A stretch of DNA of 63,872 bases, filler included, from Kipferlia bialata (lineage: Eukaryota), in the NCBI GenBank assembly GCA_003568945.1. It is 4 parts of 4 records of this genome, joined end to end, with 100 filler letters (N's around TTAATTAATTAA, not from the genome) between each part and the next. Parts side by side here need not be neighbours in the genome. Positions count along the whole stretch, not along the records: positions 41,357 to 61,808 come from BDIP01000372.1; 3 more parts are not named here. The stretch is one strand, 5' to 3'. Below are positions 16,601-61,808 of this stretch, piece after piece. The notes beneath the pieces were generated by a model. It saw only the letters and a program-made list of their open reading frames with translations, had not been told where the DNA came from and did no database searches. The position numbers were made by a program, and so were the translations under genes. The stretch's first letter is position 1; every line of letters starts with the position of its first letter.

Positions 16601-17291
16601 AATTTACATTGGATATATACATATGACATTGTCACAAAGAAAGTGCCCGAAGTATGTATGCATACATGGATATACACATACACCCCTATGTAGCAATGCT
16701 CCATTATATATGTGTAGATCCCCTCACCCCCCAGGTTGCCCAGGCCGTTGTGGTCGGGTCCAAGCACGCAGTGTATGGCGAGGGCATTGTGCTGTTTGTG
16801 GAGGCAGAGGGACACGCAGAGGCAGAGGCTGAGGGTGATGCCGACTACTGTGAGGGGGTGGTCAAGGCAGTGCATGCAGTGTGCAAGGTGTGTGGTGTAT
16901 ATAGTATATGTGTAGTGTATATATATATATATAGTATTATAGAGTATTTTTTTTACATTATATGTGAATTTTCCCTACCCCCCAGGAGATGGCTGCCTAC
17001 AAGAGAGATGTACATGGTAGATGGGTATATATATATATTATTGGTATATATATATACATATCATATATATATATATATATGCCTCTTATCTATCAGGAGA
17101 TGGCTGCCTACAAGCGGCCCCTCCACGTTGTCGTGCATGGCGGCCCTGGGTCCCTGCCCCTGAACAGGGTGTCCAAGATAGACAGGAAGGCACTCACGGC
17201 CCAGGTGAGTGGTGTATGTACACTATGATACTAATGCACACTGGGTTTTGTACAGTTTGTGCTACCTTTACTCACTCACTCTCTCTCTCAC

Positions 17292-17328
<37 letters not shown>

Positions 17329-17416
17329 GCACTCTCTCCCCCCCCCTCATGTGTCTGACCCCCAGGGTGAGGATGTGGTCCAGACCCTGAGGACTGAGGG
17401 AGGGTGGGACGCTTAA
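10664..17416 (+). CDS. Acyl-CoA synthetase / AMP-binding (class I adenylate-forming) enzyme with N-terminal membrane anchor; about 26 exons
   Basis: Hand-spliced exons start at ~10664, 10778, 11331, 11460, 11708, 11940, 12224, 12541, 12755, 13061, 13316, 13454, 13827, 14010, 14112, 14456, 14742, 14931, 15286, 15462, 15648, 16084, 16509, 16735, 17097 and 17366. They give MHEILIFLLTAIVCYAVWRFF, IVFTTG|STGKPKP (P-loop), GLGLTET, GEVCFKGPQVFAGYY, DGWLHTG|DLG, GRSKFVVRQKGYQ|VYPPEIE, PLNRVSKIDR and a stop at 17416. Confidence 0.9.
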
Positions 17417-38700: not shown

Positions 38701-40470
38701 TGATGACTGCTAAGGAGGCAGAGGTATGTGCTTCAAGGATATTGTCGTGTCATTATGTGTCTCCATAAGCCACGGTCTATTCGATGTTCACTTACCCTCT
38801 AGGTCAAGGCTATGGAGGAGCGCCGCGCTGCCATTGTCGAGGAGGAGACTAGGCGCATGCAGGCCGAGTTTGCTGAGATTGAGAGGAAGCAGCAGGAGGA
38901 GAAGGCCAAGCACGGGGCCCAGATTGTAGAGGCGAGGAAGCGCCTCGAGCTGCAGCAGGCCCAGCTTCTAGCCGCTGAGAAGAAGAAGCAGCTGCGGCGC
39001 CTCTCCATGGCCCACTCTGACGGACAGAGAGCGCAGCTCATCGCTGAGTTCCAGGCTCAGACCGTGGCCCTGGAGGGTGCGCTCAACAGCGAGAGGGAGA
39101 GACAGTACGCCCAGCTGGAGGCCATGCTCAACAAGAGGCGCGAGGCCAAGCGCAAGCAGCGTATCAAGGCTGCCCAGCGTGAGATGGCCGACAGACTGAA
39201 GGAGGAGGAGGAGGCGAGGGCGAGGCGTCTCGAAGCCCTGGAGGACGAGAGGCAGCAGAACGAAGTTGCCATACTTGAGCAGCAGGAGGAGGAGGCCCTC
39301 AGAGCCACCGAGGCTGAGGGTGCTCAGGTGGCAGAGGCAGACGAGGAGAGTGAGAGAGAGGCAGAGAGAGAGCCTGCCCTCCTCAAGCCTAGCGCTGGTC
39401 GCCACGCCAGGGGTAAGCACACGCGTCCCAAGCAGGGTGCCCACGTCCACAAGGCCAAGGCCAAGAGGACCGGTGCACTCGACAGAGGCTCTGTTCTTGC
39501 CGCCTTTGAGGGCTCAGAGCTCTACACCCACATGGCCGCCATCGTAGCTGCCTCCCAGAGTGGACTGCCCAAGGTGGTCCACAGCCCCAGGAGCCCGAGG
39601 AAGGCTAGCCAGGGCCTGGACACCGCTGCTCTCAGCAGATACTGTGACGACAGGGACGCTCTGTTCACCCCGGGCACCAGTCTGTCAGTCGTGCCCAAGA
39701 GCAAGCTGAGCCCCAGGGAGCAGGCCACCCTCGCAGAGAGCAACGCCGCCCTCAAGCGAATGCTGCCCCCTCTCCTCAAGAACGTGAGCCTGCGTGTTGC
39801 GTCTTCCATGCCTGTCCAGTACCCCGAGACTGTCTTCCCCCGCTCCTACAACTACAGCGCCAAGGACAAGATTCTCTTCATCAGGAGGGACAGACTCAAG
39901 CACACTGGCGAGCTTGGAGTTGTCCTTGCCCACGCCGTGGCCCACGTCGAGACCAACACCTCTGCAGACGCTGACCCCAAGTTCGTGCGTGCCTTCTACT
40001 CGAAGCTTGCCTCCATGCAGGTTCCCGAGGCACCCAAGGCTCCCGCTGCCCCTGAGAGGCCTGTCTCTAGCAGGCAGGGCGCCAGGGGAGGAGAGGCCAG
40101 TGCTGAGGAGCTGGATGAGATTGCTAGGCGTGTGCGTAGCCTCGAGGGCGACCTGGGTACCTCTGATACTGTACCAGAGCCCGCTGAGGCTGAGTCCTCT
40201 AGGGAGTGGCACCAGACGCTCTGCAGACACGAGGCCCAGGCCCTTGAGAACACCATCGACACCCTCAACCAGCAGTTCATCAAGCTGCGGGGTGGGGCTG
40301 CTGATGATGCTGGTACCAAGGCTGAGCTGGAGAGAGTGCAGCTGAGGCTGGCACAGTTTGAGGAGAGACTGGCGCAGGTCAGACAGACAGAGAAGGACTA
40401 TCTCAATGGGTCAGGGGCAGACAGAGAGGCCGCCGATAGGGAGGCCTTCCGTCGCATCTCAGACCAGTAG
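20706..40470 (+). CDS. Giant (about 6,400+ aa, 5'-truncated) Cys-rich GCC2/GCC3 (ephrin-receptor-like) repeat protein with one transmembrane helix and a long coiled-coil C-terminal region
   Basis: Open frame 20706-27050, an N gap, then 27487-37295, with many CPAGxYCP / CxxCxxGxYC repeats. Block YPVYEKDSLFNSNDDFDYGVFR at ~32790; TM WVLILLFSMLAVSVVGGIISAFLVF at ~33090-33165. Further exons 37377-37499, 37552-37722, 37800-38549, 38610-38723 and 38803-40470 splice in phase 0. Confidence 0.9.
27051..27486. other. Assembly gap inside the giant Cys-rich CDS (estimated size; causes an apparent frame change)
   Basis: 436 N. Both flanks encode the same repeat type in different nominal frames. Confidence 0.95.
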
Positions 40471-41894: not shown

Positions 41895-43232
41895 GTCCGC
41901 AAGACCCTGAAGGACCTGATCGCAGTGTTCGAGAGAGGTATGACGTGTATGTATGGAATAAGATGAATAGTGATATTGGATATTTGATGAATTCACTTGT
42001 ATGTAATTATATATTAATATATTATATTAGTATATTATTAATATAATATGTTATAGTTATTGTAATATGGTGTGGACAAGGTCCTTCAGTTCACACATCA
42101 ACATGGCAGTCTTACTGTAGGCATCCATATATTACTGTGATTGTATGTAGCTTTCATATATATATATTTATATATATATATATATCCGTCTAACCTTAGG
42201 CATCCAGAATGTCAACAGGATAGACCCACCCAAGAAGAGTGCCAAGGCAGTGAATGAGGAGCTGAGGTACTCTATCTGTATGTATAACCATATATAGTTA
42301 TGTATGCATATATCATAGTCACCACTGTAGCATATGTGGTATATCAGTATATATACCATTTGAATGAAACATATAATTTAATCACTACTTCAGCATACGT
42401 ATTGTGATGTATATATATTATTGGGTAATGCATTGACACTCAGGGAGCTCCACTCTGACCTCCTGTCCCAGAGACCACCCCTGCTGGAGGGGACAGAGGC
42501 ATCGGAGGTATATACACTATACACTATATACCCCTTATACAGATACATATACTTCCACATGTACAGCAGAGTGGATATATACATATACACTGCTTTCACT
42601 TATACTAGGCTGCCCAGGCTGCTGCCCAGCGCATTGTCAAGATACAAAAATAGTTAATATTGTATACCGTTGCATTAATTACCATAAGTAGATATATATA
42701 TTCATATGTACATATATATGTTTTGTCTCATTTCCAGGTTGCCCAGGCTGCTGCCCAGCGCATTGTCAAGAGACTGCTGCTGGAGACAGTGTTCACACCC
42801 ATGATGAGGGGTATGTATGTACAGTGTGGAGTAGATATAGTATACAGTGTACCCTATAGTATGAGGCATGTCTTCTATGGTGGGTATGTTCCCCTCTATT
42901 TCTCTCTCTCTCTCTAATGCAAAAGGACACCTTCAAATGGGCCTCTCTCTCTCTCTCTCTCTCTCTCCCTCTCCCTCTTTGTCTCTCTGTGACAACTCTC
43001 TAATGCATCGACACTTACAGAGTGCACTTGATTCCCTCCTTGTCAGTACAGATGCCCTTGTGGCAGAGTCTCTCTCTCTCTCTCTCTCTATCTCTCTCCC
43101 TCTCTTCCTAATATATAGGCCATCTACAGAGTGCACTTGACTCTCTCCTTGTCAGTACAGATGCCCTTGTGGCAGAGTCTCTGCGGCACAAGGCATTTAT
43201 ACCCAACAAGCACAGGTATAGAGTGTATAGGG

Positions 43233-43274
<42 letters not shown>

Positions 43275-43440
43275 GAGGGTCTGAGACACAAGGCATTCAT
43301 ACCCAACAAGCACAGGTATATATATATAGTGTATATATATATATAGTATATATATATATATAGAGAGAGAGAGATAGAGAGAGAGATGGCCTTGTGGCAC
43401 AAGGCATTCATACCCAACAAGCACAGGTAGATATATGCAG

Positions 43441-43473
<33 letters not shown>

Positions 43474-43629
43474 GGAGAGAGAGTCCCTGAGGCACAAGGC
43501 ATTCATACCCAACAAGCACAGGTAGATATATAGTGTGTATATATATAGAGAGAGAGAGAGATAGAGAGAGAGAGATGGCCTTGTGGCACAAGGCATTCAT
43601 ACCCAACAAGCACAGGTATATATATATAG

Positions 43630-43672
<43 letters not shown>

Positions 43673-45875
43673 TCCCTGAGACACAAGGCATTCATACCCA
43701 ACAAGCACAGGTAGATATAGCGCATATAGTGTATGTAGTGCATGTATATAGATAGAAAGAGTGAGAGAGCATAAAGCACAAACAATCACAAGGTTATGTC
43801 TATAGAGTGTATAGTTATCATATATAGTATATATATATAGAGAGAGAGAGAGAGACAGTCATAAGGGTATGTCTATAGAGTGTAGCTCTTTACTCCTTCT
43901 CTCTATACTTACTCTCTCTCTCTCTCTCTATGCTTTACTGTAGAGTTGTAGAGGCTCTTACCTTTGGCTGGACCACCCTGTGCTACTCTCTGTCTCTCTG
44001 TCTCTCTCTCTCTAGCATCTCTGTTTAATGCTAGGGTCATTGAGACCCTGACCTTTGCCTGGACCACCCTCTGTTACCTCTTTGAGAGTGAGCAGGGACT
44101 GTGCACACTGGCCAGAGGTACTATGAGTAATACATATACACTGTGTATGTATATATTCACTATATGTGTATGTATGTGTACTTCTCTAGTCTAAGTGTTT
44201 TAGAGTGAGCAGGGACTCTGCACACTCGCTAGAGGTATAGAGACTGTATATAGTAGTAGTATGCTTGTGTATTTGGTCTAGCTCTTTTCTGTCGTGTCCC
44301 GCGTTAATTTACATACTACCACTCTCTATCTCTGGCTTTTGTGACCCTCGACACCCTCGACACCCTCAACGGTCAACTTACTACAACCATTACTTCTCTC
44401 TATCGATCTCGTGTGTGTGTGTCTCATGACTCCCTCTATTCCCTCTGACCACCAGCCCTGTGGCCCAACGAGTATAAGTGTAAGTATTCACTAGAAGTAT
44501 ACATATGTATATTATATATGCATATATTATTGTATATAGTATGTGTACGTCTATTGTATCTCGTTACCCCCATCTGACACCCAGCCCTGTGGCCCAACGA
44601 GGAGGGACGGGCAGAAGGTATGGGCAACCATGTATATATGCATTTATATATGTACTATATGTACTACCTGGGTAGCTCTACCTAATATATATATATATGT
44701 GTGTGTTATATCATATATATATCATATATATATATGCACTAATCTTTAGGTGTCACTGATGCCGAGTGGGAGCAGGAGGAGAGAGAGAGCAGTAACAATA
44801 TACATACCAATTCATGTGTATAGTGTATCTCTATACATACTGACACCAGGTCTCACTGACGAGCAGTGGGAGCAGGAGGAGAGAGAGAGGGAGGAGGCCC
44901 ATGGGGTCATGGTGACAGAGAGTGACCCAGCTGGGCTAGATAAGTGAGTGGTCTACATCTGCTCCACCTATGCCCAGAAGAAATAGTGTTTGTTTTATGT
45001 TTCTAATGTATTAAAAATACTCTATTGCTTCTATTGCTATACTCTTGCTAACCTCAGCTACATCTGCTCCACCTATGCCCAGGAGAACCTGGCTGAGCAG
45101 CTGGCTGTGTTCATATCAGGGGGCATTAGGTAAAGACATGTATTTGAATGTATATATATGTGCGTGTGTGTATGTATAAGAGAGTATCTGGCTGAGCAGC
45201 TGGCTGTGTTCATATCGGGGGGTATCAGGTATATGGTACATATCCTTTATACCCATGTATATAGTATATACTTCATATTCATATAGCATTCATATCTGGG
45301 GTATCAGGAACTCGGGAATACACATTATACAGTGTAATTCATCTGATAGTTGTACCTGTATAGTGGGACATCCCCTACTATATATTTCTCTCTCTCTCCC
45401 CCCCTCGTCACCCCTATTTCACCTCAGTGAGATGTTCACCTAAAAAGTGTTCTCTCTCTTTCTCCCTCTACACCCCTTATTCACCTCAGTGAGATGTCCA
45501 CATACAGGTTCAGGAAGTGTGTGAACGGACTGCCAAGGCTCAAGGTATGTATATACCAATGTGTATACTACATTCTGTTCCATGGATGTGTTTCGACGTG
45601 GATGTGTGGTTGTTGCATTCTGTTTGGTGTGTCAACGGACTGCCCAGGCTCAAGGTGTGCATTGACATATGTCCTTTCTGTAGATATACCTAATACATTT
45701 CTTCTGTTTCAATGCTATTCAACTGTATTTATGCGGGTCTTTGTCCATATATGTGAGTTTTGTATCTACGAACTGCCAAGGCTCAACGTAGAACTCTTTT
45801 TCTCTCTGAGTGTATGTAGATATTATAGTTCATTTCTTACCCAGGCCGCTCTGAAAATTGCCCTGACTAACAAGG

Positions 45876-45921
<46 letters not shown>

Positions 45922-46493
45922 TTCTATATATACTATACCCATCTCACCCCCAGGCCGCTCTCAACATTGCCCTGACCAACAAGGCTCTCTCTCTCTCTCA
46001 CACACACACACACTCTGAATATATGAATATATAAACAAAATAATATATATGTACTATAGTCCATTTCTTACCTCAGGCCGCCCTCAACATTGCCCTGACC
46101 AACAAGGCTCTCTCTCTCCCCCCCTCTCTCTCTGATTATATACATATATATATAAACTATTCATTGTATGTCTTACCCCAGGCCGCCCTCAACATTGCCC
46201 TGACCAACAAGGCATACACCATATATATATATGCATATATAATATATACATACATACATACATATATATACATATATATATATATATACATATCTAACCT
46301 CAGGCCGCCCTCAACATAGCCCTGACCAACAAGGCATACACCATATATTTATACATATATATATATATACACCATATATTTATACATATATATATATATA
46401 GATGCAGATATATAATTAATACACACATATATATATATATATATGTATACATTCCTTACCCCAGGCCACTCTCAACATCGCTCTGACCAACAA

Positions 46494-46536
<43 letters not shown>

Positions 46537-46650
46537 GATATATGAATACATATATATATACTGTAGTCCATTTCACACCAGGCTACTCTCAACATTGCCC
46601 TGACCAGCAAGGACTACACCATATATATATACATAGTTATATATAATATG

Positions 46651-46701
<51 letters not shown>

Positions 46702-49700
46702 ACATCTATACATTTCTAACCTTAGGCCGCTCTGAACATCGCCCTGACCAACAAGGCATACACCAACAGGACAAACATATTCCCTACCATTGCATCCCTC
46801 AGGTATGTAAGTATCTATATATGTATATATGTATGTGTTAATGTATATATGTACATTATGGTATACACCAACATATTCCCTACCATTGCATCCCTCAGGT
46901 GTGATTTGTATCCGTCCATAATGTTTATGGATACATATTTCTAATATCGATGTCTATATTGTCGGTATCAGTGTCAGGCGTCCACCCCTGACTTTGTGCA
47001 ACTTTTCAGACGTAGTTCTATGCCATATTTAGTCTTTAAACTACTATTGTTCTATAATGACTATACTATTATAGTTACTGACCCTTTAGGAACTGGCTGA
47101 GACTCAGTGAGAGGGACCCAGTGGCTGTCAAGAGGTATAGTGATACATATAACTGTAATTTGTATATCGTATAGTACTTATATATATACATATTAATAGT
47201 GTATATATGTTGTATATGTATCAGACTCAGTGAGAGGGACACAGTGGCCGTCAAGAGGTATATTAGCATATTACAGTATAGTTAGTAGGAATCTATATTT
47301 ATGTTGATCAGAAGTACCGGTTCGTATTTGCATTATATGAGTGTATGTGTAAGCCCCATTCTCCCCCCAGACTCAATGAGTGGATCCAGATGGACCAGCT
47401 GGTGTATATGTATATGTATATATGTATATATGTACATTTTGTATATATGTATATGCAGTACATTGTGAATAGTACCAGTATCATATATATAACCTTACTC
47501 ACCCCAGACTGAACGAGTGGATCCAGATGGACCATCTATACAGTACAAGTTATGTATAGTATCAGTATTGTATGTTAGAATATATGTTTATGTATCTAAC
47601 CCCCCAGACTGAACGAGTGGATCCAGATGGACCAGCTCGGGTTCCACACGGTACGTCTCCCTCTCTCTCTCTCTCGCCCTACACCCTTATTCTATTATTA
47701 TTAATAATGTCTAGGACATGGTCTCCCACCTTGTGCAGGTCTCTCTCTCTCTCTCTCTCTCTCCCTCTACACCCCTATTCTCTCTCCCCTCTACACCCTT
47801 ATTCCAGGACATGGTCTNNNNNNNNNNNNNNNNNNNCTCTCCCCTCTACACCCTTATTCCAGGACATGGTCTCCCACCTTGTCCAGGTCTCCACATCCAG
47901 GAGGGCAGTGCCCAGAAAGATGCCTAAGAGGTATATATATATACACCCACCCACCCATATATATATATATGTAATGTAAATACATATTTGTAGTATATGA
48001 GAGAGAGAGAGAGAGTACACAGCAAGGAGGGCAGTGCCCAGGAAGATGCCAAAGAGGTATGTATATATATATTAATTAATGTATATTAGTATACTATTTA
48101 CGTACTCTTTATACGGTAAGAGAGAGAGATAGTGTCTACATCAAGGAGGGCAGTGCCCAGGAAGATGCCAAAGAGGTATATATACACACGCACATACACA
48201 CATATATATAGTGTAAATAGATATATATATGTAGTATATGGGAGAGAGAGAGAGAGAGTACACATCGAGGAGGGCAGTGCCCAGGAAGATGCCAAAGAGG
48301 TATGTGTATATGTATGTTCACTATATTTACACATTGTCTATTATGTATATAGTAGGGTAGAGAGAGAGAGAGGGAGACGGGAGGCGCCCAGGAAGATGCC
48401 AAAGAGGTATGTATGTGCACACATATGTACACCCATACACATATATACATATGGTGTAAATAGATATATATGTAGTATATACGAGAGAGAGAGAGAGTGT
48501 GCACATCAGGAGGGCAAAGAGGTACGGGTATATGCCATGTTGGGTGCATGTATTATGGTACTTATCATCCCATCTCTCTATGACCAAATGATTGTTTATG
48601 TATATTTTCATTGCAGGCTCAACTCTCGTGGCTTGAAGATCTTCTCTCTCTCTCTCTAGTTATATATGACTATATATGTGTATATGCAATGTACTCACTC
48701 TAGGCTCAACTCCCGTGGGTCCCTTGTGTCCAGAGACCACAGGCCATCGTGCTCACCAGAGGTATGCATGTATATGTACATATATACATATAGTACGTAT
48801 ATATATATATATATATATATATGGATAGAGACCCAATGGGGGAGAGAGGGACCACAGGCCATCATGCTCACCAGAGGTATGCATGTATATGTACATATAT
48901 ACATATAGTACGTATAGATATATGGATAAAGACCCATTGGGAGAGAGAGGGATCACAGGCCACCGTGCTCACCTGAGGTGTGCACTATATTCCATTATGT
49001 AATATGAAGTTGGGGTAGTTATCTGTCCTCACCGAGGCAACTCTCTCTCTCTCTCTCTCTCTCTCTAATGTCTCACTATTCATACATACCCTTACCTGCA
49101 GCTGGCCGACCCCGTTGCCGAGGCAGAGAGGCAGAGGGAGAGAGAGAGACAGAGAGAGGCAGACGCCAAGCTGCACAGGGTGGAGGGTATGTATATGAGC
49201 ATATGTATTTGTATATATATAGAGAGAGAGAGGGGGGGGGAGAGAGGAGAGGGGGAGAGAGAGGCAGACGCCAAGCTGCACAGAGTGGAGGGTAGGGACA
49301 TATTCTCTCTTACTCTAATGTTTGTATAATGACTTTCTGGTATTGTTTAGGGTAGTTGTACTCTCTCTTTCTCATATCCAGGCACTGTTGTCAAGAGGGG
49401 CATTCAGTTATATTATGCAGAATACAATAATTAGTAGTGTATAGTAATGCGTGTCATTCTTTGGTTCTATCTGATCCCTTAGGCACTGTTGTCAAGAAGG
49501 CTCTCGACCTCTAGTGATACTTGTAAACAATGACGTTTTGGTTGACACTAGTGTTATATATATTCAGCATATATATACATTGTCTGATCCCTTAGGCACT
49601 GTTGTCAAAAGGGGCAGGGCCAGGAGGGCATTTAGTTCTATTTTACAGTTTATGTTATGAGTAATATAGTGAAGCATGTCACATTTTTTAGTACTAATAT

Positions 49701-51255
49701 CCAGGCACCGTTGTCAAGAGGGGCAGGGCCAGGAGGGCAGAGGTGGAGGAGAGTGAGGGAGAGAGAGAGAGTGAGGGAGAGAGAGAGAGTGAGGAGGAGT
49801 CCAACGCAGAGGTATTAGTAGTGTTAGTCCCCATACTTCTAGAGTCTATGCTCCGTATATGGTATAGTGTGCTGAGTTGGATGAGTCAGAGGGAGAGAGA
49901 GAGTGAGAGGGAGAGTCTGAGGAGGAGTCCAACACAGAGGTAGTGAACAACTCTATATACACACACAACTGGATATATGTGTATACGGTTTCATATATTC
50001 TATACTCTATATGTACTATTCAATAGTGTACACGTGTACTCACCAGATACAAGTATATCATATACATCATATATACAATATATATAGTAAAATATATATA
50101 TGCCCTCACCCCAGTCCAGCACCGAGATGGTCGAGGTCGAGGGAGAGGTAGAGAGCGAGGCAGAGAGTGATGGAGAGAGTGAGGGCGAGGGAGAGGGAGA
50201 GAGAGAGAGTGACACTGAGGAGGAGAGCACTGGCAGTGGGTCCGAGGGACGTATACTCACCATATACAAGTATATCATATGTATCATATATACAATATAT
50301 AGTAGTAAGTCCTTACACCCAGAGCACTGGCAGTGGGTCCGAGGGAGACAGTGACTCATCCTCTGAAGGTCCTACACCACCAGGTATATTAGAGTGTATG
50401 TGTTCATTCCTATACTGATATATATATCCATACTATTATTATATAGTATATATAGTATTATATATATATATGTTGTTGGGTGACAGTGACTCATCCTCTG
50501 AGGGACCTACACCCCCAGGTATATCTATATATATAGTCTGTATTTATGGTTACTTAGGATATCACATACACACATATATGTAAAGACTGTGACTCATCAT
50601 CTGAGGGACCAACACCGCCAGGTACCCACACACACACACACGTATATATATATTTGTATATATTATTCTCTGTATTAGTCTGATAGCCAGTCCCCTCCAG
50701 GTACACCCCCTCCAAGCAGAAGCAGAGACCTTGCATATAGTACAACATATACTACTATATACATGTCATTGTATATATTTACCTCCAGTGCCCTCCAGGT
50801 ACACCCCTTCCAAGCAGAAGCTGAGACAGAAGCAGAAGGAGAGGGAGAGAGAGAGAGAGAGAGAGACTGAGGGAGAGGAGGGCATGGCTGCTGACATGGA
50901 GCTGGGGTCATTCGACTTCTCAGGTAGCTATATATACGAATATCACTATGCCCATTATTGCTGCATTACCTCTCTATCTAGTAGCTACTGACATGTGTAT
51001 ATGTATACATATACCTATATGCTGACATGGAGCTGGGGTCATTCGACTTCTCAGGTATGCATTCCTTACCCCTCTCTCTCTCTATATATATATACTATCT
51101 TACACACCAGAGGGAGAGGCCCCATCCATCGTGTCTGAGCCAGAGTCTCTCTCTCTCTCTCTCTGTCTCTCTCGCTATATGTATATATGTCTAACCTTCA
51201 AGAAGGCGAGGCCCCCTCCATTGTGTCTGAGCCAGACTCTCTCTCTCTCTGTCTG

Positions 51256-51287
<32 letters not shown>

Positions 51288-53962
51288 GTATATATCTATA
51301 TATACTTACATACCAGAGGGCGAGGCCCCCTCCATTGTGTCTGAGCCTGAGACAGGTGGCAAGAGAGAGAGGGAGGACTCAGACTACATACTGGCAGAGG
51401 TATGGTGTATATAATAGTATATATACAAATATGTTATGATACGTGGAGATAGAGAGAGAGAGAGGACTCGGACTACATACTGGCAGAGGTAGGGTATAAT
51501 ATATATGTATATATATACATAGAGAGAGAGAGAGAGGGAGGACTCAGACTACATACTGGCAGAGGTGTATAAACTGCATATAGTCTTTCTCTGTCTGTCT
51601 CTCTACACCCATATTCATAGGGCCCCAACCCCTTTGTCAAGAAAAATAGACATCTCTCTCTCTGTGTCTCTCTCTATATGAGTGAACGTATATAATAGAG
51701 TTTATAATAGAGTGTATTACATAGTGGATATTCACCCCAGGTCCCCACCCCCCTTGTCAAGAGGAGGAGACGTGCCCTGTCCAATGCAGCTCAGGTGGCA
51801 GAGGTATAGAGGGGTATATATATATGTATGTATAGAGAGATCATAGAGAGAGAGAGAGAGAGAGAGACGTGCCCTGTCCAATGCAGCTCAGGTCGCAGAG
51901 TTAAGGTTTCTATTTACATAAAGTGTATGTTTATGTATAGATTATACCTTTGTCGTACTCTCCTATATATATATGTGTGTATTTTTGTATTTATGTCTCA
52001 CTCCAGAAGGGGCAGGATTATCTCTCTCAATATATATGATAGTATTGTATCTTTCTATACTATCTCTATTTTTTTTTCATATCTAACCCTCCAGGAGGAC
52101 CATGTGTATATACTCTCTCTCTCTATGTACTCTCACTGTATATAGTCTCTCTCTTATGTATATGTACCTCTGTCTCACCCTAGGAGGCCTCTGTCTCCAC
52201 CAGAAGGGGCAGGAGGACAAGGAAGGAGACACCCACACAGGTGTGTAGAGAGTACTGTGTGTATATATATATATTTGAGGGAGAGGGAGAGAGAGAAGAA
52301 GAAGGACAAGGAAGGAGACACCCACACAGGTATATAGAGAGATATACAAGTATATATATATAGAGAGAGAGGGGGGGACACAGGTATATAGAGAGAGACA
52401 CAAGTATATGTACACTTATAGAGAGAGAGGGGGGAGGGGAGGGACAATGAAGGAGACACCCACGCAGGTATATAGAGAGATGTGGTATATATACATATAT
52501 ATATATGTATATTCACTGTGTATGCTACCTTACCCCAGTCTGAAACTCTGCTTGATGTACTATCAGACCTACACGAGGTATCAGTGTATTATGGTTACAG
52601 TGGGGTATATTATATATACTCCAATACATTTACATACCTCCAGTTCTAGACAGTCAGATACTATCACTCTCCCCCGCTCTGTATAATTAGTGAGTATAAT
52701 GATTGTACATTGTACCTCTCTCACCTTCTAGGAGTCCTCCAGATCATATATTCATGTGTGTATATACCCTAAGTATATATATATGTGTGAATGTATATTA
52801 CTTACCCCCAGGAGTCCTCCAGCTCAGAGCAGTCTGAGTCTGAGACTAGTACTACTGTCTCTCCATATAGACACTATTCATCACATATTTATGTGGTTAT
52901 ACATATATATATATATATATATATAACTTTCTCACCTTCTAGGAGTCCTCCAGCTCAGAGCAGTCAGAGTCTGAGACAGAGAGTGAGGGAGAGAGAGAGA
53001 GAGAGGAGGAGAGAGAGAGTGGCAGTGAGAGTGAGAGTGAGGTGACTGTCAGCATGGGAGAGAGAGAGGAGGAGGAGGAGGAGGAGGGGACTGAGACCCC
53101 AAAGCCTACATCTAGGTATCTGAGTGCTACACCTATTAGTAGTAACAGTGTCCTGAAATTTAGGGTGCATATCTATATATATACTAATCCTTATCTAACC
53201 CAAGCCTACATCTTGGTATGTGCACTACCCTTACTACATTGATCCCTTTTGTCTCTCTCTTTGTGTTCCTATACATATATATGGGTGTGTGTATATGTTA
53301 CCTTCTAACCCCAGGTCCGAGAGGGCTGCCAGGAGGGAGAGTAACAGGGTGGCCAGTCTCAGGTATATACTCTCTCTCTATATATATATACAAAGTGCTT
53401 TATGTATATGCTCTCTCTCTATATATATGTACATAATACATAATACATAATACTATGTATATATACCATATTTGTATAATATGGAGAGTGTCAGGAGGGA
53501 GAGCAACAGGGTGGCCAGTCTGAGGTACAGTGGAGTGATATACTATTTACTATATATGAGTAATACTAACTCTCATATCTCTATGTATATGTATGTACTA
53601 CTATAGTTTTATATGGGAGAGCAACAGGGTGGCCAGTCTGAGGTATGGTACTATATGAATATATATACTCTCTCTATATATATGTACATAATACTATGTA
53701 TCTATACTATATTTGTATAGTATATAGATAGTAATGGAGAGTGTCAGGAGGGAGAGTGTCAGGGTGGCCAGTCTGAGGTATATACTCACTCAATATATAT
53801 ACAAAATACTTTATGTATATGCTCTCTCTCTATATATATATATACATAATACTTTATATATATACTGTACTTGTATAGTAATGGAGAGTGTCAGGAGGGA
53901 GAGCAACAGGGTGGCCAGTCTGAGGTATAGATGTTTACACACCATGTGCCGTACATACACAC

Positions 53963-53995
<33 letters not shown>

Positions 53996-54152
53996 CTCTA
54001 TGTCTTTTACTCTAAGTATATGTATATGATAAAGTGTCAGGGTGGCCAGTCTGAGGTACAATCATCAAACATACACACAATGCGTTTTGTTAACACTGTA
54101 TAATGGTGACATACTGCAGTGAGTACAAGTCACTCTCCAGGGTCAAGCCCCC

Positions 54153-54193
<41 letters not shown>

Positions 54194-54207
54194 CCCTTAC
54201 CCCTAGT
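41895..54207 (+). CDS. Highly fragmented (>25 small exons) protein of unknown function: helical N-terminal half, acidic low-complexity C-terminal half; partial
   Basis: In-frame spliced chain VRKTLKDLIAVFER|GIQNVNRIDPPKK..|ELHSDLLSQRPP..|VAQAAAQRIVKRLLLETVF..|HLQSALDSLLVSTD..NKHR|VIETLTFAWTT..|..|YICSTYAQENL..|EMSTYRFRKC..|AALNIALTNKAY..|NWLRLSERD..|LNEWIQMDQ..|DMVSHLVQ... Ends are uncertain. Confidence 0.65.
43187..43712 (+). repeat. Donor-side exon echo array, 6 copies
   Basis: cacaaggcatt(t/c)atacccaacaagcacag|gta at ~43187 (exon), 43287, 43398, 43493, 43587 and 43682, separated by (TA)n(GA)n. Confidence 0.95.
45835..46802 (+). repeat. Acceptor-side exon echo array, 8 copies
   Basis: YYYAG|gcc(g/a)c(t/c)ct(g/c)aacat(t/c/a)gccctgaccaacaagg starting at 45845, 45954, 46077, 46182, 46304, 46465, 46582 and 46726. 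Only the last copy continues to a donor (46802). Confidence 0.95.
47887..48525 (+). repeat. Donor-side exon echo array, about 6 copies (RRAVPRKMPKR)
   Basis: aggagggcagtgcccag(a/g)aagatgcc(t/a)aagag|gta at 47899 (exon), ~48024, 48143, 48267, and partial copies at 48384 and 48503. Confidence 0.9.
53315..54058 (+). repeat. Donor-side exon echo array, 6 copies (RRESNRVASLR)
   Basis: Exon 53315-53362, then cagggtggccagtctgag|gta ending at ~53524, 53642, 53776, 53924 and 54054. Confidence 0.9.
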
Positions 54208-54268
54208 GATGACGTCACCTTCTCCGTCCCCCCCCCCCCCCCCCCCCCCTCCACCCCTCATTTTTCTT

Positions 54269-54639
54269 NNNNNNNNNNNNNNNNNNNNNNNNNNNNNNNN
54301 NNNNNNNNNNNNNNNNNNNNNNNNNNNNNNNNNNNNNNNNNNNNNNNNNNNNNNNNNNNNNNNNNNNNNNNNNNNNNNNNNNNNNNNNNNNNNNNNNNNN
54401 NNNNNNNNNNNNNNNNNNNNNNNNNNNNNNNNNNNNNNNNNNNNNNNNNNNNNNNNNNNNNNNNNNNNNNNNNNNNNNNNNNNNNNNNNNNNNNNNNNNN
54501 NNNNNNNNNNNNNNNNNNNNNNNNNNNNNNNNNNNNNNNNNNNNNNNNNNNNNNNNNNNNNNNNNNNNNNNNNNNNNNNNNNNNNNNNNNNNNNNNNNNN
54601 NNNNNNNNNNNNNNNNNNNNNNNNNNNNNNNNNNNNNNN
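54269..54639. other. Intra-scaffold assembly gap flanked by poly-C tracts
   Basis: Run of N, with C tracts at 54228-54249 and 54661-54674. Confidence 0.95.
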
Positions 54640-54998
54640 CAGGTGCTGTATGAGTGGTTGCCCCCCCCCCCCCCTCTCTCTCTCTCTCTTTATACAGTAC
54701 TCATTCCAGACCATACCCACCTTATGTATATGTATGACATGTAAGAGTAGTTGTCCCACCCCCCTCTCTCTCCTGCAGTAGACTGAACTATTTCACTCCA
54801 GACCATACCCACCTTGTGCATCTGTACGAGTGGGGTCCCCTCTCTCTCTTCATATACATATTATATACATCTGTGTAAGTATTTTAGTTTGTCCTGATTC
54901 CAGACCATACCCACCTTGTGCATCTGTACGAGTGGGGTCCTCTCTCTCTTCATATATATATACCTCTATGTAAGTATATTATACAATACTCATTCCAG

Positions 54999-57900
54999 AC
55001 CATACCCACCTGGTATTTGTGTATGACATGGCTCAGGGACTACCACAGTTCGGAATCATTCCAGATGGTTATGAGGTATGTGATGTACTTTGAATACCCC
55101 TCCCCCCTCCCACATCATACCAAACTTCTGCATACTATACTGTATTAATTACTGCCCTCCAACACCTCCTCCCTCCCTCTATCCCCTCTAACACCACACA
55201 CATTTCCCCCCCCCTCATACTCAAACGTAGATCCATATACTCCCTCCCTCTCTCCCATGTGTGTGCTATTCTTAGTGTAATGTGTTTCTGGGTATACTCT
55301 CTCTTCCTCACTACGTAGCACAAGATTATACTGATAGCAGAAGGGGTACACATATTCACCCCATACGTATATACAGTACATGGTATAGATTACCGTATAC
55401 ACCCTCTCCTCTCTGTCACCCCCCAGCATACAGAAGTCCCAGACGGCACAGTGCCTCTCAGACTGACAGATACTACATAATACTTATCGTATACAAATAG
55501 TATCTATTTGATGTATGTGTATATATATACCCATTCTTACCCCTAGACCCAGTCCCAGATGGCCCAGGGCCTCGCAGACTGGGTGAGGAAAGTGGACCCA
55601 GAGAGGTACGGTATATAGATGAATGTATACATATACACATATATATGTGTGTGTATAGAGAGAGGGTACTGGGTGAGGAAGGTGGACCCAGAGAAGCAAG
55701 ACATATTCACATTATATACTATGCATGTATAATGTTATCTACCTTACTATAGAGTGTGTGCAATATACATGTATCTATCTGTCTATTTTTCAGGATCATA
55801 CTAGTCTAACAGCCAGATTCACAGAGCTAGTGGCTGCCCTGCTGGAGTCTGTGCCTGAACCACCTCCCAAGGTATATGTGTACTGTATATACATATGTAT
55901 AATACGCTATGAATACTATTCATAGTGGACACCACGAATACTATTCATTGAATAGTGTGGGTACGGTTCATACTAGATGCTGGAGTATGCGCCTGAACCA
56001 CCACCCAAGGTATATATACTGCATATATACATCTATATAAGGATAATACACTATGAATAGTGGGTGGGTGTGTTATATACTAAATGCTTGAGTCTGTGCC
56101 TGAGCCACCCAGGGTATGCATATATATATATACATATCAATACCCACACACATATATATATATATGTATATGTGTATATCTATTTATAGTGCACGGAACA
56201 TTGAGAGTCATAGTTATACTATATATATATATATATATACTATATTAATACATACTATCTATATATTCTGACTCTCTAGGCACCTGAGCCTCCTCTAGCC
56301 TTTCCAGTCTATCCCTACTACCACCTTGGAGGGTCTTCTCTGGGTACACCCATTTCACGTCTCTACACGTTACCCAACGTCGCTGTACCCGGTACACCGC
56401 ACACCGTTCCCAGTACCACCCAGAGACCCAGCACTGGACCGAGACTCTATAGCCGCAGGGGATTCGACAGGCCTCTAGAGCCACCAGAGGTAGAAGGGGG
56501 CATGGGAGGAGAGAGGGAGAGACCTAAGCAGTGGGAGGGCGAGAGACATGGGGAGGGCAAGAGGCCTATGGCAGTGGGGGAGGGAGGGAGAGAGGAGAAT
56601 GTGAGTCTTCAGACTATTGGTACTGTAGGTACTCGCACTAGGATAGAAGAGGGAGGAGAAGGGGGAGAGAAGGATCCCTGGCCTAAGGTGTATCCTCTGT
56701 ATACATATGAGGTATACACCCCAACTGTAGGGGTAGGAGAGGTAGATAGACGGGAAGTAGGACAGGGAGAGAGGGACACAGAGAGCTTTGGCTATGCTGC
56801 CTATACAGCACATACCCAGAGTGTGAGTGGTGCTAGTACTCGTACTCATACTCCCTCACTCTATGGGGAGTGGAGATGGGCAGAGGGAGGGGAAGAGAGA
56901 GGGGGGGAGAGAGAGGGAGAGGATACAGCCCAGGCCCAGAGTGTGGGTGGTAGTTATACTGATACCTATCTCCCTATGGCGGGGAGATGGTCACAGAGAG
57001 ATGAAAAGGGAGAGGGAGAGGAGTTCTCTGGTGCAGGGTCTGAGACCACAGAGGAACTGGAGAGTGAGATACTAGGAGATGGAGACCGGGAAGGCGAGGA
57101 AGAGACTCTAGTAGAGACTCCCTTAGAGAGTGTGTCTGCGTCTTCTGTCCATGAGTGCACCTTTGCAGATCATGAAACTGGTGCTGATACTGCTACGTCC
57201 TCTGTGCATGAGCGGGTAGCAGAGGCTGTGTGGGTGACAACTGACCCTGACTCTAGCATAGGCTCTAGGGTCACAACCCCTAGTGGTGAGGGTGTCCCAC
57301 TCAGAGTAGCAGAGACAGAGGGAGAGAGAGAGGGAGAGGTGGAGCCAGCTAGTGATAGTGAAGGCTCTGAGCTTGATGGCATAGATGGAGAGGGAGACAG
57401 AGAGCCGGATGCAAAGGGAGAGGGAGAGGGAGAGAGTGGTGGGGACAGGTGGTACTGGGACTGTGATGGTTCCGATGACATGTCAAGAGAGAGAGCAGAT
57501 GGAGAGAGAGAGAAAGGTGACAAGTCAACAGAGGGGGAGAGAGAGCAGGACACAGAGAGAGAGTACAGTGATGGGTTCAGTGAGTCCTCCGACTTGGGTG
57601 ACCAGACCTCAACACAGAGAGAAGCAGAGGAAGGTGGAGAGAGGGAGAGAGAGAGGGAGAGAGAGGGGGGGAGAGAGAGTGATGTGTTCAATGAAAACCC
57701 AGTGGATATGGACTTGGACACAGACTCAGACGCCTCGGAGCCAGCAACGTACACCGTCAACCGTACACCGTTCGGCGCTTCAGAGCCAGACGCCTCGGAT
57801 CCAGAAGCACCTAGCCCAGCATCAGCTGGCACCAATCACCGTACGGATTACACCTCCCTGAGGTGCTGTCAGGAGGTATGATGTACTCGTAGGCCTTCCA

Positions 57901-58095
57901 CCGTGCCACCCTTCAGATAGCCAACTGGTAACTCAGTATATGATTGTTATAGACATATTCATATACTTAGATCCATTGAGTCCACGAATATCTTATCCCA
58001 GGCCTTCCACCGTGCCACCCTACAGATAGCCAGCCTCAATGCCAGGCTGGAGGACGCTCAGGTATAGTGTATGTATATATATACCCATCTAATGA

Positions 58096-58126
<31 letters not shown>

Positions 58127-58332
58127 ATAGAGACAAGCAGTAGAGACAAGCTGCCAGGTTGGAGGACACACAGGTATAGTACAACGATCAGAACACCTCG
58201 AGCTCTTTCAATCTAATGCATACCCTAGTTTCTGTCATTCTTGTCTCTCTGAAGTGATCCTTCTAACCCCAGCGCCATCTCTCTGAGGAGCAGAGGGGCC
58301 GGGAGGGAGAGCAGGTATGACAAAGATTCATG

Positions 58333-58365
<33 letters not shown>

Positions 58366-58418
58366 TGGCAGAGAGGGAGAGGAGGTACGACAAAGATTCA
58401 TATATATATACTTGTACA

Positions 58419-58451
<33 letters not shown>

Positions 58452-61400
58452 AAAGTGCTGGGGTGGTAGCAGGGGGCAGCATGTAGCGTGTATCTTCTGA
58501 ATCTCTAACTGCAGAAGAGGACTGCCCAACTCATCCCGACCCATGAGAAACCAATATATATCGATATATATACAGAGAGAGAGACAGTGAGTATCTATAC
58601 CCTCTATATATATCCTCACAACAGGAGAGGGCAGCTGAACTGATCCAGACCCTGAGGGAGGAGAGAGACACAGCACAGAGTCAGGCAATGGCACTGGCAT
58701 CACAGTTGGCAGCAGCTAAGGTGATATATAGAAATCTAGACCCACTTCAGACCAATCTTCTATACCTCGTATACAAGTTTTAGCCTCCGCTATCCATTCT
58801 TCGAGGTGTCAATGCACATATTCTTTTGCTTTCAAATTGAGAGAAAGAGATAAATAGTATTGAGACTCACTACTTACCCCAGCGCCGTATCTCCACTGTG
58901 CAGCGGGGTGTGATGAGCAAGTACTGCAGGTATGCACTTGGTATATAACCCAAACTCCCATAGAATACCTATGTGATATATGCATGTGTATATGTATACA
59001 TGTATATCTCCACTGTGCAGAGGGGTGTGATGAGCAAGTACTGCAGGTATGCACATGTGATATACTCGTATAGACTACTTATATGGTGTATGTACAAAAT
59101 GTGTACATGACACTGCAGGATAACTATCACTCAAGGAGAAGACTACCCTATTGTTATCATATGTTTATATTATATGTATAATGATATATATATACATATA
59201 TATATATATATACCATAAACCATATGCACTGACATCAGGATGACTATCGAGTCCCTCAAGGAGAAGGCCACCCTATACAGCAAGGAGAGGGACAGCGAGA
59301 GACAGGAGAAGGAAACGATGAGGTGAATATATACTACAATGTATAGTGTGAGTATATAGTATCTTATCACTTGTTCCAATGAATACCGTTTGACTAACGT
59401 TCTAGGCAGTCACTGAACTCAGTTCTGACAGAGAACACGTCACTACATGCCAGGATACAGGTGGGTTACTGCCTAGATCTATACCTCTACCAGTATTCAT
59501 TCACCTATCCATAGGAACTGGAGGCCCAAACCGTTTTCCACATACACATATTATTTCCTTTATGGTTGCCATATAGATCTAGTACGTGGTAGGATTAGTC
59601 TGTCGGTGACAGTGTGTTAACGGGTACACTATTGCACATATATATACTCTTACGTATAGGAACTTGAGGCCCAACTGAGCGCCAAGAGCACTCCTGCCGA
59701 GACACCATCTGTCACTCTACATGCTCCAGATTCTGAGAGTGCAGAGACAGCTGGTCATACCGGTGATGTAGTAGAGAAGGGAGAGATAGACGGAGAGGGA
59801 GAGAGGGATTATGAGATGGATGGGGACAAGACCGACAGTCTGGGCGAGACTGAGCTGCTGAGACAGGTGGGTGCATAGGAGTAATTGTAATATTGCATGG
59901 CTATTCCATATACATATTGATATTAGGGGATATATCAAGGACACTTACCAATACAGGTTGCCGTGCTCATTGGGGAGAGAGAGCTGGAGAGGGAGGCCAG
60001 GGAGAAGGCTGAGCGTAACAGAGACGACAAGACCCGGCAGTACGAGAGACTCAGAGAGAGACTAGAGGTGGAGTGCGCCAAACTATCAGGCTTGGCTGAG
60101 ACTGAGCGAGAGGCACGTGTTAAAGCAGAGAGACAAGTGCAATCACTCACGCGTCAGCTAGAGAGGGAGAGAGAGAGCAGCGGGGCCAACGAGGCCAGGC
60201 GCCAGAGGGAGAGAGAGCGAGTGGCGCAGGAGAATGCAAGAGAGAGGGAGAGAGTGGCCAATGAGATGAGGCAGAAGAAGAAGCAGAGAGAGAAGGAGAG
60301 GAAGGAGCAAGAGAAGAGAGAGAGAGAGAAGAGAGATGTCGCTGATGAGGAGGAGAGGCAGAGACGGAAGAGGGAGAACGCCAATGCTAGGGCCAGGGCC
60401 ACCAAGTATAGTTCGTGTCAAGAGGACTACTATAAGGTAAGATACACATATATATACATATTGATAGGTATGTGAATTATTGTGTATTTGCCAAGTATCA
60501 TTCATTGGCCACCAAGTCTAGTTCGTGTCAAGAGTACTACTATAAGGTATGTGTATACCATATACCATATACCATAGTTTACCATCAGAGTCCTGGCGTC
60601 CCTCTGCCACTGTCCCTGAGAATTGAATCGTATAGTGTACTACATTAGTATAGTATCAAGCACAATTGCCATTATAGCAATTATATAGCACTGCCTAATC
60701 CTTTCACATTTGGTGTCACTACCTGAGGTAGTCTATCTCTGCCACTGAATACTATCTTCAATACGAATATCTATGTGTATGTATTCATGTATGGTTACAC
60801 TAATATATTGACTCTAATAGTATATGAATCCCCCTCTGCCACTGTCCCTCAGATCAAGACGGCGTACTGTACCAATACTATATGTATCGTATTCCAACCC
60901 CAGAGCCTTGGCGTTACCCCCTCTGCCACTGTGTCTGAGATCAAGAAGGCATACCGCAAGTTGGCCCTGGAGTGGCACCCTGGTGAGTATGTACTCATAT
61001 TACATATATGATATATATATTATATATATATATAGTATATATATAATGTATATAATGTATATATATATAATATAGTAGACTATAGAGCACTATATATATA
61101 TATCACTATATACCATGGTATCATGGTAGATCAGGAAGCTGGCACTAGAGTGGCACCCTGGTGAGTACATACTACATACTGTTACACTACATAGTAATAC
61201 CTTCTACATGTACTGTATGTGCTATATACAATTCGTATGCACGTACTATCGTAGGATGGCCCTGGAGTGGCACTCTGGTGAGTATAAGTGTAGACCATTG
61301 ATTATAGACTATAGACTATATAATAGTAATGTATATATCTTTGTCCTCGCGTCATCCTCTGCACCATCTCTCACTGGTCAGACAGCTATCTAGTGTTAGA

Positions 61401-61808
61401 TGTTCTATAACCTGATTGTAAAAGAAATTGTATCTTGTTCTCTCGCTCACTTTTCAGACCGCAATCTGGACAGATCAGAGGAGGCCACAGAGGTCTTCAA
61501 GCGTCTCAAGGTATCAATTATTACAGTGGTCTCTTGCACCTTTGTATTGTGACCATTATAGGAGGTATTTTTGTATCTTTTGAGGTATATGAGGTCTTCA
61601 AGCGTCTCAAGGTACATACAGTACCCAGCAACTTGTGATCTCTTGCAAACAACGATATATGTATACTTGTTTGTGTGTACACTAACTCAAGGCCGCTTAT
61701 GACACCCTGAGTGATGCAGATGAGAGGACATGTACATATACATATATATATATAAATAGAGATAAGTCTAAACTAACCCTAAGGCTGCTTATGAGACCCT
61801 GAGTGATG
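54999..61808 (+). CDS. Large acidic/coiled-coil protein with a C-terminal J domain (class C DnaJ-like); partial at both ends
   Basis: Exons include 56280-57875, 58002-58061, 59957-60435 (..QEDYYK), 60904-60982 (SLGVTPSATVSEIKKAYRKLALEWHP), 61458-61510 (DRNLDRSEEATEVFKRLK) and AAY(D/E)TLSD. The HPD motif is rebuilt across a phase-1 intron. Confidence 0.8.

Follow-up and report, generated by a model that had tools for sequence, protein, structure and literature searches.

The window analysed here (the whole stretch of 63,872 nt from Kipferlia bialata, assembly GCA_003568945.1, in whose positions all coordinates are given) contains a host gene region with the focal locus, which comes from BDIP01000372.1. 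The region comprises two gene models that are separated by an N gap and counted as separate models, the second being the J-domain protein KIPB_000497 (NCBI protein). The first contains an intron in which acceptor sites are stacked, each followed by a copy of the head of the next exon. The features of this array are given in Table 1, together with the host region and a control gene.

Table 1. Features of the focal array, its host gene region and a control gene (X1, DNA contigs; X2, RNA-like contigs)
Feature	Position	Strand	Remarks
Control gene encoding the AMP-binding enzyme KIPB_002297; 26 exons, 19 detected exon-edge copies	10664..17413	+	First donors and last acceptors in the NCBI protein
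Host gene region	41895..61510	+	26-exon stop-free model 41895-53362, then N gap, then 14-exon model 54999-61510
Upstream real exon	45490..45544	+	First donor GT 45545 used; X2 contig joins 45129>45490 and leaves window sequence after the exon
Focal intron, 1181 nt, 2 donor-side and 7 acceptor-side copies	45545..46725	+	Longest among 78 modelled introns
Silent copy, last 28 nt of upstream exon + GT	45627..45656	+	Alignment; no X2 depth
Second silent copy, upstream exon end + GT	45768..45789	+	Alignment; no X2 depth
Unit 1, branch point/AG + 32-nt head (head start 45845; N>K), then (TC)n	45836..45876	+	In X1 DNA contig without differences; no X2 coverage
Unit 2, acceptor + 32-nt head (head start 45954)	45943..45985	+	Sequence alignment
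Unit 3, acceptor + 32-nt head (head start 46077)	46067..46108	+	Sequence alignment
Unit 4, acceptor + 40-nt head (head start 46182), then (TA)n	46172..46221	+	Sequence alignment
Unit 5, acceptor + 40-nt head (head start 46304)	46294..46343	+	Sequence alignment
Unit 6, acceptor + 32-nt head (head start 46465; A>T)	46455..46496	+	Sequence alignment
Unit 7, acceptor + 40-nt head (head start 46582; A>T, N>S, A>D)	46572..46621	+	Sequence alignment
Unit 8, the real 77-nt exon (start 46726)	46726..46802	+	X2 loose-end letters; keeps 618-aa model open
Silent copy, last 32 nt of real exon 46726-46802 + GT, in next intron	46867..46900	+	Sequence alignment

All eight acceptor units with near-synonymous heads described in the first-pass annotation are present, each directly preceded by a branch-point-like motif and AG, and they translate in order as AALKIALTNK, AALNIALTNK (four units), ATLNIALTNK, ATLNIALTSK and AALNIALTNK. 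Their alignment scores (23.5-32.5) lie far above the maximum of 12 among 559 mismatched exon-intron pairs, so the similarity is not due to chance. That annotation had also reported mostly third-position variation with a few replacements, and this holds: counted against unit 8 there are 11 distinct differences, 8 of them in third positions and 7 synonymous (3.9 expected under neutrality, P = 0.03), while the replacements are the N>K, A>T (two units) and N>S it had listed and, in addition, A>D in unit 7. As it had likewise stated, the seven upstream units run into microsatellites, units 1, 2, 3 and 6 ending after 32 nt in (TC)n and units 4, 5 and 7 after 40 nt in (TA)n; all seven keep their AG, none reaches a GT, and the donor at 46803 is reached by unit 8 only. 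The focal copies share end points and fall into two spacer families. The real exon gave no protein match (six candidates, none scored) and no Pfam family, which for so short a query is weak evidence.

The focal array is one case of a window-wide pattern, which the first-pass annotation did not note; nor did it list the two donor-side copies at 45627 and 45768 in the focal intron. Within the four scaffold pieces of the window, on which all copy counts are based, 98 exon-edge copies occur in 45 of the 78 modelled introns (one of them, at 50226, adjoins an exon with an uncertain boundary and was dropped from all statistics). Exon heads are copied upstream (42) and exon tails downstream (46), with 10 interior pieces and no case of opposite polarity (0/98), and the AG is retained in 38 of 42 heads and the GT in 42 of 46 tails. 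Simple introns had been put at under 100 nt, which applies to 10 of the 33 introns in which no copy was detected; their median, at 144 nt, is longer. The (GA)n tracts tend to lie in the first half of an intron (25/36) and the (TC)n tracts in the second half (32/54), a bias too weak for a model in which the two pair with each other, and the donor side of the focal intron has no (GA)n tract. A metagenome scan yielded seven loci, none of them a near match for the gene of Kipferlia (42-47% identity in the best long matches), and in the literature, with subscription journals and bioRxiv supplements outside the scope of the search, we found no description of exon-edge copies in Kipferlia; duplication is unmentioned in PMC5874029.

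Two familiar arrangements do not account for these copies. Nested, stwintron-like introns carry matching numbers of inner donors and acceptors, and here the counts are unequal, with 2 donors and 7 acceptors in the focal intron and equality in only 5 of the 51 copy-bearing introns or flanks. Mutually exclusive tandem exons are rejected because none of the seven silent units reaches a GT and no intact duplicate exon is found among the 98 copies. The copies might instead be remnants of such whole-exon duplicates after loss of one splice site, for which long joint selection on both copies would be expected and of which the near-whole copy at 59005 (42/47 nt) could be an example. The lack of any intact duplicate, the break points shared by several copies and the presence of up to seven copies per exon make this highly improbable.

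A further alternative is that alleles or strains were joined through microsatellites during assembly. The assembly is a draft from short reads with many (TA)n and (TC)n tracts, the assembled DNA may itself derive from X1, and the comparison with the X1 (DNA) and X2 (RNA-like) contigs covers 44900-45878, which takes in only unit 1 of the eight and leaves the copy number outside its scope; two further runs, X3 and X4, gave no contigs there and weigh neither way. Nevertheless, a 749-nt X1 contig that spans 45179-45878, and with it the donor copies, one acceptor copy and unit 1, shows 0 differences at a depth of 436, against 432 in the adjacent contig that carries a unique exon. The same tail-AG-head-tail layout is seen in X1 contigs at other loci, and exon-to-microsatellite junctions are absent from an intact allele. 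We regard an artefact as extremely improbable.

As to which splice sites are used, the first-pass annotation held that seven good 3' splice sites must be skipped, and the contigs bear this out. In X2, whose RNA nature is a guess (none of the listed runs is on record as RNA) though it skips GT..AG introns, donor 45544 is joined directly to 30 loose-end letters with the codons GCT CTG AAC ATC, a set found only in unit 8. The outermost sites are used at three successive introns in this one contig, and the five copies within 44900-45878 have no X2 contig coverage, although contigs hide rare forms. A rule of first donor and last acceptor gives stop-free frames in 6/6 gene models and reproduces the NCBI proteins for two of them, neither of which includes any copy sequence. 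Neither site strength nor RNA structure explains the choice of unit 8: its acceptor ranks 6th of 8 in a leave-one-out matrix, the real site is the stronger in only 18 of 41 acceptor pairs and 19 of 46 donor pairs, and the accessibility of the real acceptor (0.57) is no greater than that of the others (0.41-0.71). Since the sites left unused match the used ones in strength, site choice looks positional, and we infer that it is exon-definition-like.

Exon definition and recursive splicing had been offered as alternatives, and only the first of these remains a reasonable inference, given the first donor/last acceptor rule in six models. Recursive splicing uses AG/GT ratchet points, in which the acceptor AG is followed by a GT that regenerates a donor. 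The focal intron resembles such introns in having several successive acceptors, but its AGs precede coding-like heads, all eight read AG/GC, which regenerates no donor, and among the 26 exons that have head copies, just 4 start with GT. The usual cross-exon bridge involves U1-70K, U2AF35 and SF1. None of these three is recorded as detected in K. bialata in supplement 10 of PMC6679479, and this bridge may thus be missing in the organism, a point against pairing across the exon.

Could the copies nevertheless be used today in RNA or protein, as alternative acceptors, as GC-donor micro-exons or through a rejoining step? Coding use would yield a synonymous excess, and a GC follows base 30 in 6 of the 7 silent focal units, which would give in-frame 30-nt micro-exons in the focal array only. 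We consider present use quite improbable, as the X2 contig runs from 45544 straight to unit-8 letters, five copies lack X2 contigs altogether, the two NCBI proteins contain no copy, and no more than 14 of the 41 heads have a GT near the free end. Moreover, in 75 of 79 cases splicing at a silent site would change the reading frame or introduce a stop, and hence the copies are not useful isoforms.

The history of the copies is recorded in their differences. Among unique differences between copy and exon, 104/170 are synonymous, compared with a neutral expectation of 44.4, or of 50.1 when trinucleotide-matched (maximum 70 in 5000 draws). Differences between silent copies show the same proportion (36/59, P = 0.0015 versus 41%), and divergence amounts to 24% at fourfold sites and 4% at non-degenerate sites, close to the decay of AG and GT in the copies. 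The excess is weaker in the two NCBI-matched gene parts alone (36/68, P = 0.02 over 40%); in 15 of the 53 arrays replacements outnumber silent changes, and the private changes left when the most changed copy per array is dropped (2/6 synonymous) are too few to inform. Ordinary tandem duplicates of a single lineage, older exon versions frozen and decaying neutrally since, would be the simplest account of mirages, and the head-upstream/tail-downstream polarity would follow from tandem geometry alone. This account is already disfavoured and we give it little chance, because neutral decay, when only the real exon is under selection, should give at most 41-46% synonymous changes (P = 1.6e-7 and 3e-5 against the observed 61%), the observed fraction was reached in 0 of 900 single-lineage simulations (maximum 0.48), and flanks should be as similar as the exon parts and are not. 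Intronic flank identity is 63-64%, compared with 58-60% for random pairs. A synonymous excess never simulated by a neutral single lineage, next to spacers that are nearly unrelated, argues that protein selection acted on the copies' sequences through most of their history, and we consider the synonymous excess in such copies a new point of analysis and the more unusual one, which the first-pass annotation, treating the array as a local oddity, had not raised.

The copies also look as if they were born diverged: 12/97 are identical to their exon, compared with 11.6 expected from one depth (without overdispersion, which is partly forced by the score threshold), only 1 of 79 has an intronic flank at least 90% like the real flank, and no age gradient with position is seen among the copies. 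These numbers bear on the idea that the copies arose in place long ago as duplicates and that selection keeps them coding-competent, since slippage deletion or conversion between copy and real exon often moves copy sequence into the gene. Such a reservoir would account for both the synonymous excess and the intactness of the splice sites with no need of sex, as well as for conserved exon parts beside near-unrelated spacers, and the silent share of changes is indeed higher within 15 nt of the splice site (45/65, against 47/87 farther away; P = 0.066). Yet it would probably need high collapse rates over 20-40-nt repeats and a very large population, sister-sequence copies should include young ones with identical flanks, of which there is the single case just given, and no collapsed form appears in the X1 contigs over 44900-45878 (contigs drop rare variants). 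On balance we think it unlikely.

We lean, with modest confidence, towards the proposal that the silent units are pieces of former alleles, stacked or refreshed by out-of-register recombination between diverged haplotypes, as a selection signature beyond the neutral single-lineage model points to such exchange. A rare break-repair join from the exon interior to a (TC)n or (TA)n tract in the intron upstream would found a repeat, and the focal array would have had two such founding junctions, at +32 and +40. If alleles share little beyond their exons, repair or crossover could pair a functional head with a silent head of another haplotype, and this out-of-register pairing would add or remove a unit, or overwrite the exon part of a silent copy, so that the exon part of each copy would have been under protein selection until recently. 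The shared end points and two spacer families fit exchange within heads. A spliceosome that pairs across the exon, taking the nearest acceptor before a donor and the nearest donor after an acceptor, would let such stacks cost little, and duplications that span one splice site would survive while others are purged. According to PMC8516963, NHEJ and Rad51A are missing from fornicates, which carry two Dmc1 paralogues, and Dmc1 is described in PMC8682777 as tolerating mismatches. Four-gamete evidence is thin (1/4 informative pairs), the DNA is from one sample, a sample and locus search found no second Kipferlia strain, and no second allele was seen in X1 over 44900-45878. Flank identity simulated from the 24% fourfold divergence is 73-74%, higher than observed, and the allele proposal hence needs added fast intron change or exon-limited conversion; an allele simulation fits the observed data only with parameters that we chose.

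A wider and rather doubtful extension is that the introns constitute a genome-wide archive of exon-end alleles, recycled by Dmc1-based recombination and tolerated via strict exon definition in a spliceosome without detectable U1-70K, U2AF35 and SF1. Extrapolation from about one copy per intron would put the archive at the order of 100,000 splice- and coding-competent edges, and if this were true one genome would record a population allele pool and cryptic sex. If the allele proposal itself is right, one assembly records allelic diversity and recombination in a lineage with little-documented sex, exon-definition-like splicing operates in a protist whose spliceosome is reduced, and a way for introns to grow is at hand. 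In practice, exon-edge copies can lead gene prediction astray and raise splice-site counts in the K. bialata genome.

Among known systems, exon definition as surveyed in PMC2397502 offers a likeness, in that pairing across short exons (median length 72.5 nt in Kipferlia) gives outermost-site choice, but the survey describes intron definition as predominant in fungi and most protists, and an exon-definition-like Kipferlia would be an exception. Introner elements are likewise repetitive intron parts, and many X1 contigs match one 30-40-nt Kipferlia intron tail, which has no second match within the window. However, introners are families of similar whole introns at unrelated sites, whereas the Kipferlia repeats are copies of the neighbouring exon with intronic parts that bear little resemblance to one another, and K. 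bialata is scored without introners in the survey of PMC9860276. In the Rogers model of intron gain, as outlined in PMC3443670, a local duplication of gene sequence is also spliced out and leaves the protein unchanged, but there the duplication in tandem, within the genome, of an exonic AGGT makes a new intron, while in Kipferlia it is splice sites already present that are duplicated and an intron already present that lengthens.

The closest likeness is to the mirages of amphioxus, described in PMC3087553 and PMC3902484 for the globins BflGb6 and BflGb9, Adh3, troponin C and PGBD5. In both cases tandem copies span the exon-intron boundary at either exon end and stand next to the real exon, many units retain AG or GT, and normal splicing is undisturbed (for Kipferlia, in one RNA-like contig over three successive introns). 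Unequal crossing-over has been proposed as the source in amphioxus, and misaligned recombination is proposed here. Units are about 125 nt in Kipferlia and 150-160 nt in the amphioxus globins. The differences are that Kipferlia is a unicellular fornicate flagellate with copies in more than half of the modelled introns rather than at single loci, that its exon parts are about 92% identical beside far less similar flanks whereas BflGb6 units are 81-100% identical throughout, and that the amphioxus passages report no synonymous excess or selection test. As the Kipferlia units are not homogeneous minisatellites, we class them, on their sequence features, as a variant of the amphioxus mirages and not as a plain member. 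The origin of mirages is described as unclear in PMC3087553, and K. bialata, with about one per intron and a measurable signature of selection, makes that origin testable.

The first-pass annotation described eight stacked acceptor units before a single exon, and this is confirmed: each unit has a branch-point-like motif, an AG and a near-identical exon head, units 1–7 end in (TC)n or (TA)n, and unit 8 alone reaches a donor. Four units enter (TC)n after 32 nt and three enter (TA)n after 40 nt, and together they depart from unit 8 by 11 distinct differences, 7 of them synonymous (3.9 expected, P 0.03). The array is not the local oddity it was taken to be, as there are 98 exon-edge copies across the gene models of the window. 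The six models (84 exons, 78 introns) resolve repeated sites in favor of the first donor and the last acceptor; all six are stop-free, having been selected to be so, and NCBI proteins, which are likewise predictions, equal two of them exon for exon. Each exon was aligned to its flanking introns and a score of at least 13 defined a copy, the maximum being 12 in 559 mismatched exon-intron pairs. Upstream of the 84 exons are 42 heads (acceptor plus exon start) and 9 interior pieces, and downstream are 46 tails (exon end plus donor) and 1 interior piece, with no tail upstream or head downstream among the 98. Copies (median 30 nt, with a median unit of 125 nt) are present in 45 of the 78 introns, the median intron being 287 nt with a copy versus 144 nt without, and AG/GT is intact in 80 of 88 head and tail copies. 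Other features are listed below.

Coordinates of features in the window
Position	Feature	Observation
10664-17413	AMP-binding gene	25 introns
16735	51-aa exon	100% match to Kipferlia bialata KIPB_002297
20606-20705, 41257-41356, 61809-61908	N runs flanking TTAATTAATTAA	linker-like; the window appears to consist of four separate scaffold pieces joined by them
20706-40470	very long gene (open reading frames)	nearly without introns amid intron-dense genes; cysteine-rich repeats, coiled-coil-like end
43174-43720	five donor-side copies	include a two-unit duplication (period 189, 94% match)
43945-43990, 54710-54940	some head copies	several conservative replacements versus the real exon (e.g. D>E, I>V), which points to coding variants of far greater age
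44953-44982	30-nt head copy of next exon	9 nt past donor, no AG before
45182, 45627, 45768, 45845	copies	covered by no X2 contig
45451-45490	intron tail	dispersed intron-end family
45835-46802	eight-unit array	unit 8 at 46726-46802
46899	duplicated donor	use would extend the exon by 96 nt (46803-46898), in frame and stop-free, one of few such silent sites; candidate for minor alternative use
50115-50383	in-frame coding-like sequence leading into exact 24-nt copy of next exon's head	may be a new intron created by duplication of exon sequence
50226	copy	exon boundary uncertain; left out of all statistics
56280	exon	matches KIPB_000497, J-domain protein

Synonymous changes make up 104 of the 170 unique copy-versus-exon differences (97 copies), versus 44 predicted by random placement and 50 by trinucleotide-matched placement (maximum 70 in 5000 draws). 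They also account for 36 of 59 differences between silent copies, those lying unused in introns, and 25 of 47 changes private to one silent copy (13.3 expected). The excess is weaker in NCBI-matched genes alone (36 of 68, P 0.02 against 40%), 15 of 53 arrays lean the opposite way, and the strictest private-change test, a small sample, gives 2 of 6. A single lineage in which copies decay neutrally and selection acts on the real exon alone predicts 41–46% synonymous (P 1.6e-7 and 3e-5) and fares badly, 0 of 900 runs of an explicit simulation reaching the observed 0.61; the copies can be older exon versions only if those versions came from other haplotypes. Divergence from the exon is 24% at fourfold sites and 4% at non-degenerate sites, and given this and the retention of AG/GT, neutral decay accounts for at most about a sixth of it.

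The copies look diverged from birth. Those farther away from the real exon are no more diverged than nearer ones, and 12 of 97 are identical to it where one common depth predicts 11.6 (the score threshold narrows the spread). Between silent and real sites, intronic flank identity is 63–64%, compared to 58–60% for random pairs and 73–74% simulated from fourfold sites, and 1 of 79 is at least 90% identical to the real one; pure stacking is thus insufficient, and fast intron change or exon-limited conversion is needed too. We lean toward an origin in which an exon interior joined into an upstream microsatellite would found a repeat, after which the functional exon end would pair out of register with a silent copy carried by a diverged haplotype, adding, removing or refreshing units and reusing old junctions. 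No second allele is visible over 44900–45878 in X1, an assembled DNA run, and no second K. bialata strain was found in sequencing samples and metagenome contigs; the main rival, in which selection would act on the copies in place via collapse or conversion, seems to us rather improbable. The two shared end points and the two spacer families of the eight-unit array agree with exchange between diverged haplotypes, as do one of four informative four-gamete pairs and a trend for silent changes to be commoner near the splice site (P 0.066). Fornicates have no NHEJ, no Rad51A and two Dmc1 paralogues (PMC8516963), and Dmc1 tolerates mismatches (PMC8682777), which makes this route plausible. The two-unit duplication among the donor-side copies is recent, so in-place expansion happens as well.

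The comparison of runs spans 44900–45878 and, of the eight units, takes in unit 1. X1, possibly the source of this DNA, matches 44900–45144 and 45179–45878, which includes unit 1, with 0 differences at a depth of 432–436, and the tail-AG-head-tail layout recurs at other loci in its contigs. Many of 223 X1 contigs match the dispersed intron tail, and it has roughly 300 copies since the summed depth is 130,094 versus ~430 for single-copy sequence; the window holds no second copy at up to 4 mismatches per 22 nt. Contig 9 (depth 86) of X2, a run assigned to RNA by guess, joins 44943 to 45058 and 45129 to 45490 with GT..AG introns removed, passing over donor-side and acceptor-side copies and skipping the head copy near the first donor. 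The suggestion that seven acceptors are skipped is supported by this contig, which runs from the exon end at 45544 into 30 letters with a codon set that only unit 8 has. Minor use of the four copies without X2 coverage is possible, as contigs drop rare forms.

Site strength was rejected as the cause of this choice, as the real site is stronger by leave-one-out matrix in 18 of 41 acceptor and 19 of 46 donor pairs and the unit-8 acceptor ranks 6th of 8, and so was RNA structure, real sites being no more accessible in the computed fold. Recursive splicing, also proposed earlier, is not supported: it needs AG/GT, whereas this array has AG/GC and a GT start is seen in 4 of the 26 arrays. Nested removal requires equal site numbers, and the silent sites here comprise 2 donors versus 7 acceptors. 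Since none of these accounts for the choice, what stands of the proposed exon definition is a positional rule favoring the outermost site, presumably through pairing across the short exon. Use of a silent site would cause a frameshift or added stop in 75 of 79 cases. Intron definition predominates in most protists in a 42-species survey (PMC2397502). SR proteins and U2AF65 are retained in K. bialata, with U1-70K, U2AF35 and SF1 undetected in a fragmented draft that may hide them (PMC6679479, supplement 10).

The AMP-binding gene has uninterrupted relatives on metagenome contigs (L001–L004, 42–47% identity over ~550 aa). If it were prokaryotic in origin, all of its introns would have been gained within Kipferlia's lineage, which would bear on the ancestral status given to Kipferlia introns in the available text of the genome paper (PMC5874029); that text reports 124,912 GU-AG introns and contains no match to 'duplicat'.

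This kind of structure is already known from the mirages of amphioxus (PMC3087553; PMC3902484), in which exon-intron boundaries at either exon end are duplicated in tandem. Such duplications often retain AG/GT, leave splicing unharmed and arise by a mechanism termed unclear. The Kipferlia copies resemble mirages in being tandem boundary duplications with AG/GT mostly kept. The array is real, and the Kipferlia copies differ from known mirages in that their units are not homogeneous and go beyond them in density, unicellular host and signature of selection.
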